IMG/VR virus record: IMGVR_UViG_3300017791_000124
Coordinates: 1,174-65,173 of that record
Direction: 5' to 3' (one strand)
Length of the DNA stretch: 64,000 nt
Source of the DNA: a virus
The notes beneath the pieces were generated by a model that ran no database searches, was not told the DNA's origin, and saw nothing but the letters and a program-made list of their open reading frames with translations. Each line of letters opens with the position of its first letter. Positions within the stretch are counted from its first letter, which is position 1. Made by a program: the position numbers and the translations under genes. Below, piece after piece: positions 40,966 through 63,969 of the stretch.

Positions 40966-41210
40966 TATGGGTCGCCGTATGGGTCGAGCGCTCGCTGCTT
41001 GCTGGAAAAGCTAAGCTCGTCAGTAGCTTAGTAAGATCCGGTGCTCCCCTTGTAGGGAATGCCGGCGAGGTCTCAGGAGGTCTCAGGACGTCCAAGGCGG
41101 AAGCAAAAAACCCTTGTGGCATAGCGCTTTCTCGCATATTAGTCCTCCATGCGTCGCAGTGCGTCGCAGTGCGTCTCACCCGAATGGGATGAGTCAAATT
41201 ATCGGTCGAG
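40966..41210. mobile_element. Candidate attP region
   Basis: Non-coding region upstream of the integrase; arm-like TATGGGTCG x2 (40966, 40978) and TATCGGTCG (~41200); 10-bp repeats at 41068-41097 and 41146-41179. Confidence 0.55.
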
Positions 41211-41221
41211 AGGGAAGTGAG

Positions 41222-42454
41222 ATGGCAGCGATTCATAAGCTCAGCGCCGGCGCGGTCGAAGGCGAGATCAGGCGCAAGATCAAAACGCCGAAGCTCATCA
41301 ACGACGGCGGCGGGCTTTACCTGCAGGTCGCGCGCTCCGGATCGGTGTCGTGGATTCTCCGCTACCGCAGCCCGGTCACCGGCAAGAAGCGCGACATGGG
41401 ACTCGGCTCGGCGCACAAGCTGCCGATGAAGCGCGCACGCGAGGAAGCGAAGCGGTTGGGCGAGATGGTTCACGCCGGCCTCGATCCGATCGTTGAGCGC
41501 GATAAGGCTGGCAAGAACGCGGTCACCTTTCGCCAGCGCTTCGAGTACATGGACAAGCTGCAGCCGCGTTTCGGCTGGCGCGAGATGCTCGACATTCACG
41601 CGATGCCGGTGCTCGGCGACAAGCGCATCGACGCGATCACCACCGAAGACGTCGTCGGAATCATCGCCGGGCTGACCAACGCCGGCAAGCACGAGACCGC
41701 GCGCAAGCTGCAGCAACGGATTCAGGCGGTGATCCGCAGCGCGAAGAACAGCATCGATACGGTCGCGCACAAGGCGTACATCTGCAACACGCTGTCGAGC
41801 TTCAAGAAGGTGAAAAAGAACAAGGCATTTCCGTCGCTCGACTTCGAGAAGCTGCCGGCGTTCTTCCGCGAACTGCAAGCGCGTCCGGAGCTTGCCGCGC
41901 GCGCTCTTGAGTTCGTCACGCTCACCGTCTGCCGGCCGGGCTCGATCGTCGGCGTGCGATCGAAGTATGAGCGCAAGCCGCCGCTGCGCTGGACCGACAT
42001 CGACTTCAAGCGCCGGGTGTGGATCGTGCCGGCGGTGAAGACCGCCGATCAGCATGACCCGCAACCGTTCGAGATTCCGCTGAGCGATGCCGCGATGGAC
42101 GTGCTCGCGCGCGTGAAGGCGATGAAGCTGCACGACGAGATCGTCTTCGTGTCGCAGTATCACGCAGGCCCGATGGCAGTCTCGGCGATGCGTCAGCAGA
42201 CGATGCAGCGGATGCGTCCCGGTCTTACCGTCCACGGAATGCGGACGGCGTTTCGCACTTGGGTGGGCGAGAAGACCGACTTCAGCCGCGAACTGATCAA
42301 CACCGCGATGGCGCATCAGGTCTTCTCCGAGAACAAGGCGGAAGCGGCTTACAAGTCCAAGCTCAAGTTTTTCGCCAAGCGCCGCGCGATGATGGATCGC
42401 TGGGCCGACTACGTCACCGGCAAGAACAAGGTGGTTGCGCTCAAGGCTGCTTAG
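41222..42454 (+). CDS. int: Tyrosine integrase (P4-like, arm-binding N-terminal domain)
   Basis: DGGGLYLQV...SWILRY...MGLGS; catalytic R (TVCRPG), H..R (TVHGMR), H (MAH), Y (AAY); RRAMMDRWADY. Confidence 0.93.
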   Translation: MAAIHKLSAGAVEGEIRRKIKTPKLINDGGGLYLQVARSGSVSWILRYRSPVTGKKRDMGLGSAHKLPMKRAREEAKRLGEMVHAGLDPIVERDKAGKNAVTFRQRFEYMDKLQPRFGWREMLDIHAMPVLGDKRIDAITTEDVVGIIAGLTNAGKHETARKLQQRIQAVIRSAKNSIDTVAHKAYICNTLSSFKKVKKNKAFPSLDFEKLPAFFRELQARPELAARALEFVTLTVCRPGSIVGVRSKYERKPPLRWTDIDFKRRVWIVPAVKTADQHDPQPFEIPLSDAAMDVLARVKAMKLHDEIVFVSQYHAGPMAVSAMRQQTMQRMRPGLTVHGMRTAFRTWVGEKTDFSRELINTAMAHQVFSENKAEAAYKSKLKFFAKRRAMMDRWADYVTGKNKVVALKAA

Positions 42455-46408: not shown

Positions 46409-46505
46409 GTGCGCCCGGCAGGCGCATCGTGGAGTTCAGCGTTACCTTGGCCGGGCGCGGCGGTCGCACATGCTCAATGGAGTTCAATTGCAATTTGGCG
46501 ACCGC
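46409..46505 (-). ncRNA. TIGR-like stem-loop guide array, block A (2 units)
   Basis: Constant stems and TGAACTCCA loop repeat separated by exactly 9-nt variable spacers. Confidence 0.85.
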
Positions 46506-46530
46506 ATTCTGTGTGTTGGTCATCGGCCCT

Positions 46531-47062: not shown

Positions 47063-47545
47063 TCATTGCAGTGTTCCCCGCATTGGCAGCATGCCGACAA
47101 ACCGTCCTTCGAAGTGTGCCGGCTCCATGAATTCGAGCGGGCCGAGCTTCGGCCGGTTGCCGTTGCCCGGGCGCGTGATGACGCGCTGCGCGGTCAGCAT
47201 GCCGGTCTCGTCTTCGGCCTGATACATCAGCGCTTCAATGCGGTTCGGATGATCGCTGAGCCCGTGCCGCGCGATCTCGTGCAGTTCGTCGTCGCTGAAG
47301 CCGGCTGGCGCGTAAAGCTGCCAAGCCTCGTTGACAAACACATAGCGCACCACGTCGTTAAGTTCGAAGTAAGCGCGCATCAGCAGCGCGGCGATGTCCT
47401 TGTCGAACGGCGGTGATGGCACGATTTTGTGCTCGCCGGATTCCGTGATGCTGTGCCACATCGGCAGAATCTCGCCGGCGTTGTCGAATATCTGCGTGAC
47501 CTTCGCGTCGGTCTTGATGATGAAATCGCGCAGTGTGTCGATCAT
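47063..47545 (-). CDS. Hypothetical protein coupled to the TasA-like gene
   Basis: ATGA overlap with the 47542 stop; YVFVNEAW...HPNRIE...GRF. Confidence 0.7.
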   Translation of the reverse strand: MIDTLRDFIIKTDAKVTQIFDNAGEILPMWHSITESGEHKIVPSPPFDKDIAALLMRAYFELNDVVRYVFVNEAWQLYAPAGFSDDELHEIARHGLSDHPNRIEALMYQAEDETGMLTAQRVITRPGNGNRPKLGPLEFMEPAHFEGRFVGMLPMRGTLQ

Positions 47546-48396
47546 CGTGGCGGCGGCGAAATTCTGTCGCCGTCCTCTTTCTTGTTTCGCGTAGGCTTCG
47601 CCGTCGTGGCGCAGCGATCCCACTCATTCCACAAGTCGAGCAAAAACTTTTTCATCGTAACGCGTAGCGCGTCCTTGCGACGGTGTCCGTCGCTCCAGTC
47701 GGGATGAGTTTCCTTGGTGTGCTCGCGCCGCTCGGCGTAGATTGCACCGTAGGGCCCGTTCGGCTTGCCCTCGCCGCTTTCGCTTTTCTTCGCGCCGATC
47801 CATTGGGCGTTGACCAACCATGTCGCGATCTGCGCCATCAGCGCATAGCGCTCACCGGAAAAGGGATTCTCAGTCCACTCTTCGGCTGACAACGCACGCG
47901 GTCGCCACGTCTGGCGCTTCCACGTGCTGCCAGCGTGGCCGTCATAGGGCGCGAAGCCGAGCCGCTTCCAAACCTTCGCGGGATACGCGTAGTCGGAGAG
48001 ATTGCCGGTCTCGGCGATGATGGTGGCGAGCCCCAGCGCGCCCGCGCCACGGATCGCTTCAACATACGGATACACTGGCAATTCCTTCGCGGCACGCTCC
48101 ATCGCTCTTTCGGCGGCAGCGCGCTTCTCGTCGGCCGGCTTACGGGCCTCGTCGCACATGCGGACCTCGTCGGCGAACTGGTGATCGGCGCCGGCACGGA
48201 TTCGCTCGATCAGCGCCTTGACCTCGCGGTTGGCTTTCTCTCGATCCTTCTCATCGGCGTTCGGATTCCACTCTGTTGCATTGATGCGGATAAAACTTTC
48301 GAGCGATCGGTCGAGCTTCTGTTGCACTTTCATCGCGAAGCGGCGCTGGCGATGCAGTCCGCGAATCAAAGCGATGGTCTCGGCGAGATCAGTCAT
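47542..48396 (-). CDS. tasA: TasA-like RNA-binding protein (IS110 C-terminal/Nop domain, no nuclease domain)
   Basis: Coiled coil then IRGAGALGLATIIAETGNLSDY..PAKVWKRLGFAP (IS110/Nop-type motif) and YGAIYAERR...H...ALRVTMKKFLLDLW; 284 aa with no RuvC/DEDD or HNH; begins just downstream of guide block B. Confidence 0.82.
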   Translation of the reverse strand: MTDLAETIALIRGLHRQRRFAMKVQQKLDRSLESFIRINATEWNPNADEKDREKANREVKALIERIRAGADHQFADEVRMCDEARKPADEKRAAAERAMERAAKELPVYPYVEAIRGAGALGLATIIAETGNLSDYAYPAKVWKRLGFAPYDGHAGSTWKRQTWRPRALSAEEWTENPFSGERYALMAQIATWLVNAQWIGAKKSESGEGKPNGPYGAIYAERREHTKETHPDWSDGHRRKDALRVTMKKFLLDLWNEWDRCATTAKPTRNKKEDGDRISPPPR

Positions 48397-48421: not shown

Positions 48422-48633
48422 GAGAGCGCCCGGCACATCGCGAATGGAGTTCAGAAGGTCCATGGCCGGGCGCAGCGGTCGCATTGGCGGCTTGGAGTTC
48501 ACAGCCGATCTGGCGACCGCGTTCGAGATGAGAGCGCCCGGCAGCGGCGCGCTGGAGTTCATGCGTTGCTTGGCCGGGCGCGGCGGTCGCATCGCAGCAT
48601 TGGAGTTCATCAGCCATCGGGCGACCGCGTTCG
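48422..48633 (-). ncRNA. TIGR-like stem-loop guide array, block B (4 units)
   Basis: Eight 9-nt spacers between conserved CCA/TG-bounded repeats. Confidence 0.88.
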
Positions 48634-48636
48634 TGA

Positions 48637-49323
48637 TCATTGCCGAGCATCCTCGATCGGCTCGGCTTTGTGGGCGCTGGCGATCAAGTCGTGCGCAACT
48701 CTTATGCTCCCATCGCGGATCACTTCGGCGGCTTTGATCTTCGCCGCCTTGAGCTTGGCTTCGACGACGTTCGGCGGGACTGCGTCTCGAACCTTGGTGA
48801 AGGGCTCGGACGCGACGCAATGGTCATTCAGCATCAGCAGTAAGATCGACTCGACGGCATCGTCATAGCCGCGTTGCAGAAAAGATGTTGCAGTGCTTGC
48901 CTGACTCTCGGCAATCGCGCGGAGTTCGTGGATATGGATGTCGCCGAGCCGGCCTGCGCCGCGAATCCGCCGCTCGAATATCTCGTGTCGGATCACCGTC
49001 CCGGCTTTGACGGTGCCGGCCTTCTGCGCCGCGCTCGGTGTGCCGAGCTTGACACGCCGATGCGGACCTTCACGGCGGCGACCTATCGGCTTCGGCGACT
49101 TCGACGGCTTCGGTGAGAGTGTCGGCGCCTCTGCCGTTTCTGGCGTCTCCGTCTTCAGCGGCAGCCGATCGAGATAGTCGGCCGCGAGCGCAATCAGTAA
49201 CGGTCGCTTGGCATTCTCCATAAGCATGCTCGCGAACTTCGGCGCGGCCTTCGTCACGTTGCCGTCGGTCGACTTCAGAATTTCGATGGCGGCAGTGCGG
49301 AGCTTATCGGTCGTGGTGTTCAT
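48637..49323 (-). CDS. Hypothetical protein between guide blocks B and C (candidate TIGR accessory)
   Basis: GGAGGA RBS before ATG 49323; fills the gap between two arrays. Confidence 0.7.
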   Translation of the reverse strand: MNTTTDKLRTAAIEILKSTDGNVTKAAPKFASMLMENAKRPLLIALAADYLDRLPLKTETPETAEAPTLSPKPSKSPKPIGRRREGPHRRVKLGTPSAAQKAGTVKAGTVIRHEIFERRIRGAGRLGDIHIHELRAIAESQASTATSFLQRGYDDAVESILLLMLNDHCVASEPFTKVRDAVPPNVVEAKLKAAKIKAAEVIRDGSIRVAHDLIASAHKAEPIEDARQ

Positions 49324-49348: not shown

Positions 49349-49877
49349 GTGCGCCCGGCATCAGCTTGTGGGAGTTCATGAGCCTCTTGGCCGGGCGCGG
49401 CGGTCGCAGCGCGAGTGTGGAGTTCATCGGTGCCACGGCGACCGCGTTCGAGAAGAGAGCGCCCGGCAACTGACATGCGGAGTTCATCACCCTCTTGGCC
49501 GGGCGCAGCGGTCGCAAACGATGGATGGAGTTCACGTCACCATTGGCGACCGCGTTCGAATGGAGAGCGCCCGGCACTCGATTTTTGGAGTTCAGACCAA
49601 GGATGGCCGGGCGCGGCGGTCGCACTCCACGTTCGGAGTTCAGATGACGATTGGCGACCGCGTTCGAGATGAGAGCGCCCGGCATGGCTTCGTTGGAGTT
49701 CAGCCCATCCAAGGCCGGGCGCGGCGGTCGCAGCGCGATTGTGGAGTTCACTGTGTTGCTGGCGACCGCGTTCGAGATGAGAGCGCCCGGCAAGCGAGCT
49801 TTGGAGTTCACGGGTAGGATGGCCGGGCGCAGCGGTCGCAACGCCAGCATGGAGTTCATGTGTTCATTAGCGACCGC
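49349..49877 (-). ncRNA. TIGR-like stem-loop guide array, block C (10 units, 108-nt two-unit period)
   Basis: Twenty distinct 9-nt spacers; alternating GCGGTCG/CGACCGC and GCGCCCGG/CCGGGCGC stems. Confidence 0.9.
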
Positions 49878-49888
49878 ATTTCGATTGA

Positions 49889-50285: not shown

Positions 50286-50489
50286 TCACTTGCGCGGCAG
50301 ACCTGCGACGTATTGATCGATGCTCACTTGCGTGACACGCGTCATGCGCGCGCCGCCCTTCACGATTTCAAGCTTGCCGGTATCGATCAGCCGATAGACT
50401 TGCGCGCGACTGACACTAAGCTGTCGCGCCGCATCCTTCACTGTGCGCAGCTTGACGTCGCCGCCATCGTCATCGCTGCGCTTGTTCAT
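50286..50489 (-). CDS. Excisionase-like HTH (MerR/HTH_17) protein
   Basis: TVKDAARQLSVSRAQVYRLIDTGKL. Confidence 0.85.
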   Translation of the reverse strand: MNKRSDDDGGDVKLRTVKDAARQLSVSRAQVYRLIDTGKLEIVKGGARMTRVTQVSIDQYVAGLPRK

Positions 50490-51544
50490 GGGCCACCCCC
50501 GTCACCGTCCCAGCCCCGGCGCCACGCGTCGACCTCTGCCTCGCGACCGGCCTCACGATATTCGCCCGGGACGGCGGTGCGCTTCATGCCGGTGCGCTTC
50601 GCTTCCTTGCCGCGCTCCCAAGCGGTGTCGAGCCTGACCTTCGGGATGGCCGCCGGCTTGGCCGCTGTCGTCACTTCGCCGGTGGCGGCGTCGACGGTCT
50701 CGGTCTGCTCGCGCAGATGCGGCTCGGCACCACCGGGAATGTCGGGCGTCGGCTCGGGCTCGCCGTCATCGGCGAACTGATCGAGTGCTGCGGCAGCGCC
50801 GCGCGGACGGCCGAGCTTCTTGGGCGGCGGTGCCGCCACGTAGCCGGCTGGCGCGACGTCCTCGCCTTCATCCTCGCGGCTGATCAGTTCGTCGAGCCCG
50901 TGCGGCATCGGCAACAGCTTGCACAGCCGCTTCAGCGCGGTCTTCTTGCGCATCTCATCCGTCCACTGCGCCCACGGCGAATCCTCACCGCGCGCGCGAG
51001 AGACATTGCGAATGCGCGTCATCTCCGTTTCATTGATTGTGGAGACGAAGAACCCTCCGCCCTTGGTGATGGCTGCCGCGTAAGTTTCGATCACCTTGCC
51101 GTTGCCCGGGCCCGGGCGATGCAGAAAGTGCTGGCCGTGCTCGTCGAGCCAGATGTCGAACTCGCGATCGTCGTCGCGGTGCAGGCCGGCGCCGATCCAT
51201 TTATACTCGCCCGACTGCTCAAAGCGGTCGATGAGCCCGCGATACATGGGTTGCCACTTGGCCTTGCCCTTGTACGGCACGATCACGCCCTGCCGGCGAT
51301 CGGGCAACAGACCGTCGTTGGTGGCTTCGAGCAGCGCCTGCCAGAGCGATTGGAACGACACGTCGCTGATAAGCTCGGGCTGCATCATCGCGGCGGTGAC
51401 TGCCGCACGAATGAAGCGATCCGCGCTGATGCCGGACCCTTCGAGCGCATGTTCAAGCTCGGCACGCCGCTGCAAGAGCCGATCGCGCAACACGGCGATC
51501 GCCGGCACCGCCTTGGTCTCACGCTCAATCACTTGAGTGCTCAT
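50486..51544 (-). CDS. recT: RecT-family single-strand annealing protein
   Basis: GLLPD..QGVIVPY...WQPMYRGLI, SPWAQWTDEMRKKTALKRLCKLLP. Confidence 0.9.
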   Translation of the reverse strand: MSTQVIERETKAVPAIAVLRDRLLQRRAELEHALEGSGISADRFIRAAVTAAMMQPELISDVSFQSLWQALLEATNDGLLPDRRQGVIVPYKGKAKWQPMYRGLIDRFEQSGEYKWIGAGLHRDDDREFDIWLDEHGQHFLHRPGPGNGKVIETYAAAITKGGGFFVSTINETEMTRIRNVSRARGEDSPWAQWTDEMRKKTALKRLCKLLPMPHGLDELISREDEGEDVAPAGYVAAPPPKKLGRPRGAAAALDQFADDGEPEPTPDIPGGAEPHLREQTETVDAATGEVTTAAKPAAIPKVRLDTAWERGKEAKRTGMKRTAVPGEYREAGREAEVDAWRRGWDGDGGGP

Positions 51545-51566: not shown

Positions 51567-51772
51567 GTGCGCCCGGCATCGTTGCAGTGGAGTTCATGGC
51601 CTGTTTGGCCGGGCGCGGCGGTCGCATACGGGTCGTGGAGTTCACGCCGCCATTGGCGACCGCGTTGGTGGATAGGTGCGCCCGGCAAACCTGAGATGGA
51701 GTTCATGTATCCATGGGCCGGGCGCGGCGGTCGCATCCTCGCAATGGAGGTCACGAGATCAATGGCGACCGC
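51567..51772 (-). ncRNA. TIGR-like stem-loop guide array, block D (4 units)
   Basis: Same repeat grammar; intergenic between yqaJ and recT. Confidence 0.88.
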
Positions 51773-52065
51773 ATTCGATTCCATTTGGCGCGGAGTCGCG
51801 CCTTGTCGTTCCGATTGGTGATTGTTTGTGCCGCACGCGCGAGGCGCGCCGCGCCTATTGCCGGGCGGTTGACTGGCGATTGAACCCCGGGGGGAAAGAT
51901 CGCCCCCGCCTATTTCCCCGTGAGGGGTGTTGTATTCAGCGGGCCGCCCGACAAGGGAGGCCCCGGAGTTCAGGTAGTACCAAGCACTGCACCAGTCACG
52001 ATACACGCTTGGAGGATGGAGGTTCATATACTCACCTTGGGTGTGTCAAGTGTGATCCTCGTCGG

Positions 52066-53007: not shown

Positions 53008-53062
53008 CTCGTGTGACCCTTAAACGTGTTGACGTCGGGCTGGCGATTTCGTTCCCGGTCCT

Positions 53063-53151
53063 ATGGAGAAAAATGAGACGCACTGAGAAGCACTGAGACG
53101 CATAGAGACGCATGGAGACAATATCTGTTCCTATTTCCTGTGCGTCTCCAT
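53063..53151. repeat. 10-bp-period direct repeats (GAGACGCAct) in the divergent control region
   Basis: TGAGACGCAC TGAGAAGCAC TGAGACGCAT AGAGACGCAT GGAGACAA, plus an inverted copy at 53141-53151. Confidence 0.75.
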
Positions 53152-62356: not shown

Positions 62357-62670
62357 GTGCTCGATGCTCACACACCGTCGAGCACGCCTAACCTTTTCGC
62401 TGATGGTGCCAACACGGTCGAGTGGATCGTCGCTCTCACCCTGCTCGTCTTTGTCATCGCCTTCGTCGTCGTGGGCTTCATGTCGACGCTCGGTGAATAT
62501 CGGTGACCCATGGCCGTCGATCTCACACCATGGCTGATCGTGCTCGTGTTCACCGGCTTCGTCGTCGCGCTCGCGCTGCGGCCCTTGCGGTGAACGATCG
62601 CGTGCTGATCGGGCTGTTGCTCATGTTCGCGGTGCTCGCAGCCGTGTTCGTCGTCCTGATGCAACGATGA
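62357..62670 (+). CDS. Three tandem single-TM micropeptides (62357-62506, 62510-62593, 62590-62670)
   Basis: Each is a hydrophobic helix; 3-nt gap, then GTGA and ATGA overlaps into the HNH gene. Confidence 0.45.
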
Positions 62671-63572
62671 AAGTCCGCTCGGAAGCTGCAGCACCTTGGA
62701 CGAAATGGTATCGCTGGCGCCGCTGGAAACAGATGCGCGCGCACCAACTGGCGTTCGAGCCGCTGTGCCGCCTGTGCAAGCGCAACGGCAAGATCACGCC
62801 GGCGAACATCGTCGACCACGTCGAGCGTCACTTCGGCGATCCGGAAAAATTCTGGTGCGGCGAACTGCAGAGCGTGTGCCGCTACTGCCACGAAGTGCGG
62901 AAAAAATTCATCGAGTCACGCGGCTACGATCGCGCCGTCGGTCCCGACGGATGGCCGCTCGATCCGAACCATCCCGCCAACCTGCCGCGCGACGTCTTCC
63001 GCAGATTCGGCTTTTCCATCCCGCACAATCTGCGCGCTTCGGCGATCCCGGTTTTTCTCGTCTGCGGCCCACCGGCTTCGGGAAAAACAACGTGGGTCAA
63101 CACGCGCAAGGCGTTCGGCGACACCGTCATTTCGCTCGACGACTGCAAGATCGCTGTCGGCGGTCGAGCTTGGGACACCGATCGCAGGATTTTCCGTCGT
63201 GCCATGGCTTATCGCGACAGCATGCTGCGGATGCTGGCGCTGAAAACACAGGGTCGAGCTTTCGTTGTGATCGGAGGACCAACACAGGCAGAGCGTGATG
63301 CGTGGTGTAAGGCTCTCGGTGTCGAGTCCGACAACGTCGTGGTGCTCGACACTCCCGCCGACGAGTGCATTCGCCGACTCGGCGCTGATCCTGCTCGCGC
63401 TCTGGCTCGTGCGGATTTGGAAAATGGCGTGAAGCGTTGGCACTTCCTGTACAGGAAGGGTGCGCCCGGCAGCGCTTCACTGGAGATCACTGGCACTATG
63501 GCCGAGCGCACAGCGATTGCACCTGAGACGTGGAGTTCAGTTGTATCATGGCGATCGCCGCAAATAGGCTAA
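62667..63572 (+). CDS. Packaging-type HNH endonuclease fused to a P-loop (AAA_33-like) kinase
   Basis: EPLCRLC...VDHV..H.GD...QSVCRYCH; VCGPPASGKTT. Confidence 0.82.
   Translation: MKVRSEAAAPWTKWYRWRRWKQMRAHQLAFEPLCRLCKRNGKITPANIVDHVERHFGDPEKFWCGELQSVCRYCHEVRKKFIESRGYDRAVGPDGWPLDPNHPANLPRDVFRRFGFSIPHNLRASAIPVFLVCGPPASGKTTWVNTRKAFGDTVISLDDCKIAVGGRAWDTDRRIFRRAMAYRDSMLRMLALKTQGRAFVVIGGPTQAERDAWCKALGVESDNVVVLDTPADECIRRLGADPARALARADLENGVKRWHFLYRKGAPGSASLEITGTMAERTAIAPETWSSVVSWRSPQIG
63460..63557 (-). ncRNA. Orphan TIGR-like guide block E (2 units), antisense within the HNH gene 3' end
   Basis: GCGCCCGGCA-9nt-TGGAGATCA-9nt-TGGCCGAGCGC...GCGATTGCA-9nt-TGGAGTTCA-9nt-TGGCGATCGC. Confidence 0.75.
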
Positions 63573-63600
63573 CAGCCCTTTCTCTATCCGGACAACCTAC

Positions 63601-63969
63601 AAGAAGTCTCTGTGCTGCAGGCACATCTTGCATCGATGTAAGAAACCTCTGCGCTGCAAGCACTTGTGACACATAGAGACGCACTGAGACGCATGGAGAC
63701 AACAGTTTCACGTGAAACGATCAAAGAAGTCCTTGTGCTGCAGCCACATCTACGATTCAAAAAGTCACTGTGGCACAGGCACTTCTCGCATTGGTGAGAT
63801 ACACTGAGACGTAGTGAGACGTACTGAGACGTATGGGACGCATGGAGATAGAAGGATATTCTTCCCCTGCAGGCAGAGCGCTAAAAGCTCAATCATATCA
63901 AATGGTTGCATGGCATATGCGGAACGGTCCTTGGCGTCTTCCTAATCCTTCAATGAAATCAAAGACTTA
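63601..63969. promoter_or_regulatory. Repeat-rich non-coding region (candidate cos/packaging or control locus)
   Basis: Four ~28-bp direct repeats, GAGAC decamers, parS-like GTTTCACGTGAAAC (63705-63718) and IHF-consensus sites (~63896, ~63957). Confidence 0.55.

Follow-up and report, generated by a model that had tools for sequence, protein, structure and literature searches.

The phage locus and its guide-RNA units

The stretch of DNA analysed here (64,000 nt, hereafter the window) spans bases 1174-65173 of the 65,173-bp virus record IMGVR_UViG_3300017791_000124 and contains a stem-loop TIGR (tandem interspaced guide RNA) array with a nuclease-less TasA protein, in a temperate soil phage of about 65 kb whose host is probably a member of the Xanthobacteraceae. 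TIGR-Tas, a relative of CRISPR, has been described recently. The natural targets of TIGR spacers and the layout of the split guides are open questions in the text of the published work (PMC12045711; bioRxiv 10.64898/2026.09.09.750476), and the main obstacle to target finding is that 18-mers yield too many false matches. The locus offers three handles that need no database, namely guide pairs in shifted register, covariation of the last spacer bases, and codon-phase coupling of the half-sites; jointly, they suggest a 17-bp target geometry for one family of phage TasA proteins and separate candidate live guides from the rest.

A total of 22 TIGR units are arranged in five blocks around tasA, which is flanked by blocks on both sides, and all units share the minus strand with tasA and the surrounding genes. 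On this strand every unit reads stem, CCA, spacer A, TGAACTCCA loop, spacer B, TG and stem; both spacers are 9 nt long in 22 of 22 units, within the range of TIGR-Tas spacers (8-12 nt), and the CCA and TG boxes are exact or one base off. The repeats of tigRNAs are described as starting with UG (box D) and ending with CCA (box C) (Faure et al., PMC12045711); these boxes fit the minus strand exactly, which is taken as the RNA strand. The loop motif in its plus-strand form (TGGAGTTCA, 9 nt) occurs 38 times in the window at one mismatch or less, against 9 occurrences expected. Two stem types alternate with a period of 108 nt, and palindromic flanks close the units as hairpins, for which 9-bp closing stems are predicted; the stem complementarity is 7-9 of 9 (15 units caught by the automatic finder), and the RNA folds have z-scores between -3.0 and -3.3 in three units and of -1.6 in the block-5 unit.

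Block 1 (46410-46506; spacer/loop span 46421-46495) comprises two units, block 2 (48425-48629; span 48436-48618), directly upstream of tasA, four units, block 3 (49350-49878; span 49361-49867), with the two alternating stems at the 108-nt period, ten units, and block 4 (51568-51773; span 51579-51762), upstream of a recT-like gene (50486-51544), another four. Block 5 (63461-63559; span 63472-63548) lies about 12 kb from the main locus and comprises two units. Two of the units are the main subject here: T1 in block 4 (51677-51725, minus strand; spacers and loop at 51688-51714) and T2 in block 5 (63511-63559, minus strand; spacers and loop at 63522-63548). On the RNA strand, T1 consists of spacer A ATGGATACA, the TGAACTCCA loop and spacer B TCTCAGGTT within the stem GCGCCCGG/CCGGGCGC, and its predicted fold has a 9-bp closing stem (-25.2 kcal/mol, z=-3.3). 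T2 consists of spacer A TGATACAAC and spacer B CGTCTCAGG within the variant stem GCGATCGC/GCAATCGC, and its predicted fold is weaker (-17.5 kcal/mol, z=-1.6); it is antisense within the 3' end of an HNH/AAA gene (62667-63572). The product of that gene is predicted as HNH plus AAA_33 with the terminase small subunit as best PHROG, and both block-5 units lie antisense in its last ~37 codons. Other predicted genes of the phage comprise an integrase (41114-42454), RecT/exonuclease genes, a primase-helicase and a NusG-like protein. A search of sequencing runs for the locus listed no RNA run, and a small share in two soil DNA runs.

The protein encoded by tasA (47542-48396, minus strand) has 284 aa and a Nop domain and lacks a nuclease domain; it matched no Pfam family, and neither an HNH nor a RuvC domain was found. 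The AlphaFold (AF2) model is all-helical (predicted local distance difference test, pLDDT, 84; predicted TM-score, pTM, 0.78), and ranks 1-10 of the Foldseek search of the PDB are all TasH or TasR chains (probability 1.00, TM 0.44-0.64); the sequence itself gave a weak match to 9mty_A, and a match to phrog_4285 (annotated 'transposase') at 5e-12. The search for homologues found 363, mostly in soil metagenomes. The same kind of unit flanks tas on the tas strand in 24 related loci (L096-L119; 23 from IMG/VR and one from a Xanthobacteraceae metagenome-assembled genome), with five candidate opposite-strand units in three loci. These loci contributed 304 guides which, with the 22 of the phage, form the family set of 326 distinct guides. 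The arrays of related phages also hold variant guides in the same register with 1-5 differing positions, as if covering the alleles of one target (L096:8522 and 9768; L103:2448 and 4198); the L096 guide 8522 has a 1-mismatch match to a gene start in its own contig.

As far as they are described in the text of the sources, the stem-loop TIGR-TasA systems of a Peromyscus gut contig (PlTasA), Minisyncoccota (MbTasA) and Bifidobacterium longum (BlTasA) have in common with the phage that a Nop-domain Tas protein stands alone, that the tandem units are hairpins whose two spacers lie between box C and box D, that the sub-arrays are split by genes and placed on both sides of tas, with one block in another coding sequence, and that an action by DNA binding and repression without cleavage is expected (PMC12045711; bioRxiv 10.64898/2026.09.09.750476; bioRxiv 10.64898/2026.08.11.744272). 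In contrast to these systems, the phage has two strictly alternating stem types and a conserved 9-nt loop. For stem-loop TIGR arrays, the processing site is described as marked by CUU at the base of the stem (bioRxiv 10.64898/2026.09.09.750476). The dual-repeat TIGR-TasR and TIGR-TasH systems (TaTasR, SpTasH) are alike in their tandem-spacer recognition of two strands, the lack of a protospacer-adjacent motif (PAM), the UG...CCA boxes and, for TaTasR, the 9-nt spacers; they differ, in the same source, in that they have RuvC or HNH nucleases, carry short edge repeats instead of stems, and process their RNAs to 36 nt (PMC12045711).

Convergence of guides T1 and T2 and the decamer arrays of the phage

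Targets were written as spacer A followed by the reverse complement of spacer B, rc(B), with both spacers taken from the minus-strand RNA and without a gap (gap 0). This reproduced 22 of 22 of the 18-mers proposed in an earlier note on this DNA, and confirmed that the 18-mers of T1 and T2 (ATGGATACAAACCTGAGA and TGATACAACCCTGAGACG) are identical at 14 of 16 positions at an offset of 2. T1 and T2 converge on one sequence far beyond chance: theirs is the best shifted overlap among the 22 guides of the phage, as well as across the 326 family guides (~53,000 pairs), and it was equalled in 6 of 5000 letter-shuffles and in 6 of 5000 re-pairings of the B spacers, the latter six presumably those that restored the original two pairs.

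Relative to T1, and in RNA coordinates, T2 has its spacer A displaced by +2 nt and its spacer B by -2 nt, and both stay exactly 9 nt long. A forward shift of A with a backward shift of B is that of a two-strand window sliding on one duplex, and the pair therefore supports a reading of opposite strands. When the 18-mers were composed in other spacer orders, rc(B)+A gave 13/16 identities, and A+B and B+A gave 11/16. The pair had been put forward as internal evidence for a split rule of two-strand targeting; the part on opposite strands stands (A+B and B+A, 11/16), whereas order and junction are not settled by 14/16 against 13/16, and the junction is nearly uninformative in this pair since rc(B)+A fits almost as well. 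The order A then rc(B) is of our own derivation, as the arrangement that would yield the 8-nt 3' overhangs reported for TasR. Read as 17-mers in which the last bases of both spacers share one central position, T1 and T2 (ATGGATACAACCTGAGA and TGATACAACCTGAGACG) match at 14 of 15 positions, and 0 of 10000 shuffles did as well; the A/C mismatch at the centre of the 18-mers vanishes, and the sole leftover difference is the 5' edge base of T2 spacer A. In their union site, AT(G/T)GATACAACCTGAGACG, GATAC and GAGAC are exactly 10 bp apart.

The phage carries a decamer family of its own, TGAGACG(C/T)A with a 10-bp period, which marks three control regions, one by the integrase gene, one at the divergent early region and one ahead of the late/packaging region. 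The arrays by the integrase gene (41060-41182, minus strand) comprise two copies of CCTGAGACCT followed by TGAGACGCAC, TGCGACGCAC and TGCGACGCAT; the array of the divergent early control region (53060-53125, plus strand) is accompanied by an inverted copy (53141-53151); the array AGAGACGCAC, TGAGACGCAT, GGAGACAACA (63668-63705, plus strand) precedes the late/packaging region, as does a further array of TGAGACG(T/C)A (63783-63852, plus strand) near the right genome end. The repeats that the earlier note had cited from the phage were found, GATACACTGAGACG at about 63790-63803 and, at 41068-41087 on the minus strand, CCTGAGACC twice in tandem. Four repeats of ~30 nt containing TGTGCTGCAGGCACA are also present at 63600-63785. 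Regulator and excisionase boxes of temperate phages, such as those for Cox of P2 and Apl of 186, are short direct repeats in about 10-bp phase, located in the early switch region and next to int/attP. The TGAGACG decamers resemble these boxes, as generally described, in phase and placement; unlike them, the third decamer array of the phage precedes the late/packaging region.

The T2 17-mer has three matches at four or fewer mismatches in the window outside its own unit (TGAGATACACTGAGACG and TGAGACGTACTGAGACG, both in the array at 63783-63852 and each 13/17, and TGAGACCTCCTGAGACC), each with four mismatches. All three lie inside the 297 nt of decamer arrays, and 0 of 3000 shuffles reached three matches in the arrays. 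The proposal that the target resembles the decamers of the phage without matching them was thus borne out, the closest copies being 13/17, and the T1/T2 target, judged by its letters, looks like a dimer of the phage's own decamer family, with two copies in 10-bp phase.

Spacer covariation and protospacer geometry in the family

Among the 326 family guides, the last base of spacer A (A9) is complementary to the last base of spacer B (B9) in 157 (80.6 expected, null maximum 106, z=10), and among all 81 A_i:B_j position pairs A9:B9 alone stands out, the next best having z=3.1. The central base of these 157 centre-shared guides is without skew to the constant box letters, so that the covariation is not explained by mis-registration of the spacers; with the 3' ends of A and B meeting at the target centre, A9:B9 would therefore be one central base pair that is read twice. 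The centre-shared guides include 9 of the 22 guides of the phage, T1 and T2 among them.

The codon phase of the half-sites gave a second signal. The 3-periodic GC content of A and of rc(B) couples at shift 1 only (S=-29, 86 and -57 at shifts 0, 1 and 2; z=3.8, P=0.0001 for shift 1, 20000 permutations), and A against B without reverse complement gave nothing in the 326 guides. In simulations on real phage DNA, shift 1 arises when A precedes rc(B) and the gap is -1 or +2, and gap 0 gives shift 0. The signal is confined to the 157 centre-shared guides (z=4.85), with z=0.5 for the other 169. The natural target of this Tas family is thus probably 17 bp long with a shared central base pair, as far as can be read from the guides themselves; the reading of opposite strands is supported by both signals and a contiguous gap 0 is not, and the gap-0 junction of the proposed 18-mers is likely one base too long for this family. 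If the 17-bp rule holds, the central base would be duplicated in about half of the 18-mers listed.

For dual-repeat systems, the spacers A and B are described as showing no obvious covariation and hence as unlikely to overlap (Faure et al., PMC12045711); unlike in that description, A9 and B9 covary strongly in the phage family. Published stem-loop TIGR-TasA targets are contiguous and 18 bp long in the text of these sources, whereas the family statistics here favour a target of 17 bp whose central base pair is shared. The text of the TIGR-Tas literature searched, including two 2026 preprints, contains no mention of an overlapped-spacer geometry; the shared-centre overlap would be a property of this family, or one unnoticed so far. 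If this is the true geometry, searches for contiguous 18-mer targets fail for this family by construction; the half-site spacing that is allowed also matters for the design of guides with compact TasA repressors.

Two other explanations concern what the pair and the covariation mean. The similarity of T1 and T2 could stem from duplication of a unit followed by drift, or from chance, with no shared target; same-register near-duplicates do occur in the L103 array (AGAAGCGTG/GCGCCGCTT and AGAAGCGCG/GCGCCGCTT), and the stem of the block-5 unit is degenerate and its fold weak. Chance is excluded by the shuffles, however, for the 18-mers (6/5000) as well as for the 17-mers (0/10000), and after a duplication the register should persist, but A is shifted by +2 and B by -2 with both at exactly 9 nt, and T1 and T2 carry different stem types. 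The conversion of T1 into T2 would need four length-compensating indels, and an independent derivation of both from one template is therefore simpler; we consider duplication or chance very improbable. Alternatively, A9:B9 may represent an RNA-RNA contact in the tigRNA or in the ribonucleoprotein (RNP) without target, or a by-product of spacer making, with targets that are contiguous 18-mers or have a 2-bp gap, so that the gap-0 junction could stand. In the solved Tas complexes the targets are contiguous and 18 bp long, and gaps of 1-2 bp are tolerated by TasR, as described in PMC12045711, and codon phase by itself cannot separate a gap of -1 from +2. The phase coupling at gap 0 is negative, though (S=-29, z=-1.3), A9 and B9 are not opposite each other in the hairpin, and the pairs by which stem or loop would be lengthened show no such signal (A1:B9, z=1.1; A9:B1, z=-0.4); moreover, one 17/17 match and four 15/17 matches to tas genes, presented below, exist in the -1 geometry only. 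This explanation appears rather unlikely to us.

Candidate targets and proposed action

Candidate natural targets were found in the tas genes of other phages. A guide of the related locus L111 (L111:9929-9955) matches 17/17 in tas of the sister phages L108, L109 and L110, 87 nt into the gene at codons for ATGWTW; the tas gene of L111 itself encodes ATDWSW at this site and differs at 6 of 17 positions, two of these being amino-acid changes. In the phage under study, the 17-mer target of guide 48436-48462 (block 2) is, in sense, TTCGCGATGAAGGTCCA and encodes FAMKVQ, which is conserved in Tas proteins. The site in the phage's own tasA (48323-48339) matches this guide at 15/17 with both differences at synonymous third-codon positions; three other tas genes are also at 15/17, and each variant base is present in some allele. 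A scan of IMG/VR for the exact 17-mer of this guide gave two matches, neither in a tas gene. Against 25 tas genes, six guides were found at two or fewer mismatches in the 17-mer geometry and 0-3 in five control geometries. Rival tas genes are thus a credible, unproven class of targets, and would be the first natural targets that can be named if the 17-bp geometry is the true one; this, too, distinguishes the phage family from the stem-loop TIGR-TasA systems as published.

From the evidence on the pair, we infer target identity, binding and repression as follows, and give this reading about an even chance of being right: T1 and T2 would be live guides of the phage's TIGR-TasA system which address one foreign, decamer-array-like site in two registers, through a 17-bp protospacer, and act by occlusion. 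The tigRNAs would be transcribed from the minus strand and present two spacers of 9 nt, framed by box C (CCA) and box D (UG); each spacer would pair with a different strand of one DNA site, the 3' ends of the two meeting mid-site, and both 3'-terminal spacer bases would read the same central base pair, which gives the 17-bp protospacer. T1 and T2 would aim at the foreign union site in registers 2 bp apart, and this site would have the form of two decamers in 10-bp phase, from the family that serves the phage itself at its integrase-proximal, early and late control regions. The phage would spare itself because the site differs from every own copy by at least 4 of 17 bases. The action is likely occlusion because the TasA protein has no nuclease: the RNP would sit on control repeats of a related, unsequenced element (a rival temperate phage or satellite) and block its regulator or its transcription. 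Repression by nuclease-less TasA is reported, in the text of the source, for other TasA proteins (bioRxiv 10.64898/2026.09.09.750476). The non-cleaving CRISPR types IV and V-M, as discussed in PMC12045711, are alike in RNA-guided binding without cutting, of element against element, but differ by unrelated proteins, guides to a single strand, and PAM dependence.

A broader picture for the family is more doubtful, and we offer it tentatively: the family's TIGR-TasA systems would read 17-bp protospacers with a shared central base pair and serve for silencing of phage by phage, with some guides that shut off tasA of close rivals at polymorphic codons, and with T1 and T2 jamming the phased regulator repeats of a rival temperate phage or satellite that listens to the phage's regulator; about a third of the units would be live, and the rest shuffled or decayed pairs of half-sites.

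The searches for a T1/T2 target covered the phage genome, other viral records, metagenomes and candidate host genomes. There is no self-target: in line with the earlier note, which had seen no exact self-match, the best 18-mer matches in the 65,173-bp genome have at least three mismatches (3-5), the same as four control orders. The test that the note proposed, i.e. an excess of near-perfect matches to the gap-0 18-mers of order A+rc(B), came out negative, with no more matches than for control orders: the 18-mers were unenriched in the ±10-kb loci of Tas phages, and in six whole genomes there were 0 matches at one mismatch or less and 13 at two mismatches, against 8-19 for controls. Scans at gap 0 gave 95 matches in IMG/VR for GATACAAMCCTGAGA, mostly in low-GC phage contigs and with flanks at chance level, and 23 scattered matches in metagenomes of the Joint Genome Institute (JGI) for KGATACAAMCCTGAGACG, none with a preceding AT; the scan of IMG/VR for the G-variant 17-mer gave no match with the right flanks. 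The viral records searched were 25 related or decamer-bearing records (five whole records plus twenty further), and the twenty further records held no site within three mismatches. The related Tas phages G001-G005 contained no GAGAC clusters, and decamer-bearing viral contigs found with TGAGACGYAYNGAGACG contained no T1/T2-like site. In 401 Xanthobacteraceae genomes, the gap-0 pattern occurred in 5 genomes versus 2 for controls, and the 17-mer pattern in 2 versus 0.

Several of these and other results weigh against occlusion of a foreign site by T1 and T2 through a 17-bp protospacer. No target of the pair was found in the phage's own genome, the 25 viral records, the IMG/VR matches listed, the JGI metagenomes (gap 0) or the 401 Xanthobacteraceae genomes, and the sole exact 19/19 match to the union site among the matches listed (IMG/VR, 17-mer core) is in terS of Klebsiella/Salmonella-type siphoviruses. 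At four or fewer mismatches, an array-like self-match is lacking for the T1 17-mer, and the order rc(B) then A fits the 17-mers of the pair equally well (14/15). As for the geometry, 169 of the 326 guides (13 of 22 in the window) lack a shared centre and show no phase coupling at any shift, so that the 17-bp rule may cover a minority of the family guides; recombination in the constant loop may have re-paired the half-sites of such guides, or the guides may have decayed. The published structures of other Tas proteins are of contiguous 18-bp targets, as far as described in the text of the sources (PMC12045711; bioRxiv 10.64898/2026.08.11.744272; bioRxiv 10.64898/2026.09.09.750476). Finally, the 17-mer rule gave weak enrichment in 712 kb of Tas-phage DNA, with three perfect matches, from one guide, versus 0-1 for controls, 7 versus 1-14 at one mismatch, and 160 versus 74-157 at two mismatches. 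As no actual target came out of the searches, the suggestion that the guides may occlude recombination or control repeats of a related element stays a conjecture.

The terS site (ATTGATACAACCTGAGACG) was seen in L314 (G425:C1:38358-38376) and ten sister contigs, siphoviruses of ~47 kb. This match was judged as chance (~0.4 expected), with the wrong GC content and the wrong host; none of the other 20 guides matched these siphoviruses within one mismatch.

Two further explanations place the target of the pair inside the phage or its host. The guides might serve autoregulation, by binding the phage's own decamer arrays imperfectly and so tuning its control regions (early, late or integrase); it is indeed in these arrays that the T2 17-mer has its best self-matches, block 5 is ~240 nt from the right-end array, and guide 48436-48462 matches its own tasA at 15/17. 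The array copies differ at 4/17 positions, however, several of them internal, and the activity of TasH is described as strongly cut by single mismatches at most positions and abolished by double mismatches (bioRxiv 10.64898/2026.08.11.744272); half-site matches are reported to have failed to guide TasR (PMC12045711), and the T1 17-mer is without a match in the arrays, as said above. We regard autoregulation as decidedly unlikely. The pair might also target a chromosomal site of the host, the phage silencing a host or resident-prophage gene, as host-gene silencing is proposed for TasA (bioRxiv 10.64898/2026.09.09.750476, in its text). A lead in this direction was a 17/18 match (TGATGCAACCCTGAGACG) to the gap-0 T2 18-mer in an intergenic hairpin that is conserved upstream of an S24/HTH repressor-like gene; 3 of the 401 Xanthobacteraceae genomes have this match, and alignment showed it in 5 of 24 matching genomes (32 searched) of one genus. 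The mismatching base is G (14) or C (1) in the 15 aligned homologues, though, and the A of the guide in none of them; the G lies in the GCAACC/GGTTGC stem, and T1 matches there at just 13/18 (hand alignment). The lead was rejected for this mismatch in a conserved stem and the lack of a genome with the guide's base. The counts in the 401 genomes are at control level, and the true host may be outside this sample; a host target is, in our estimate, unlikely.

The loci around this hairpin (L143:1440-1560 and the homologues L169-L183) consist of a fixed AAGAATTTGTTCCCT..TTGTACAGGAC box followed by the GCAACC/GGTTGC hairpin with a species-variable loop; in some species of the one Xanthobacteraceae genus, the loop is CTGAGACGCATA, with 12 nt identical to the decamer array of the phage.

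The earlier note had also raised start codons as a class of targets, which held weakly: of the 44 spacers of the phage, 5 begin with ATG, versus 12 of 608 in the related loci. Guide 49841-49867 was compared with the start of the gene at 48637-49323 and rejected (13/18, chance level). Spacers that start with A/G/T-TG number 9 of 44 in the window versus 34 of 608 in the related loci, a local excess of start-codon-like 5' ends.

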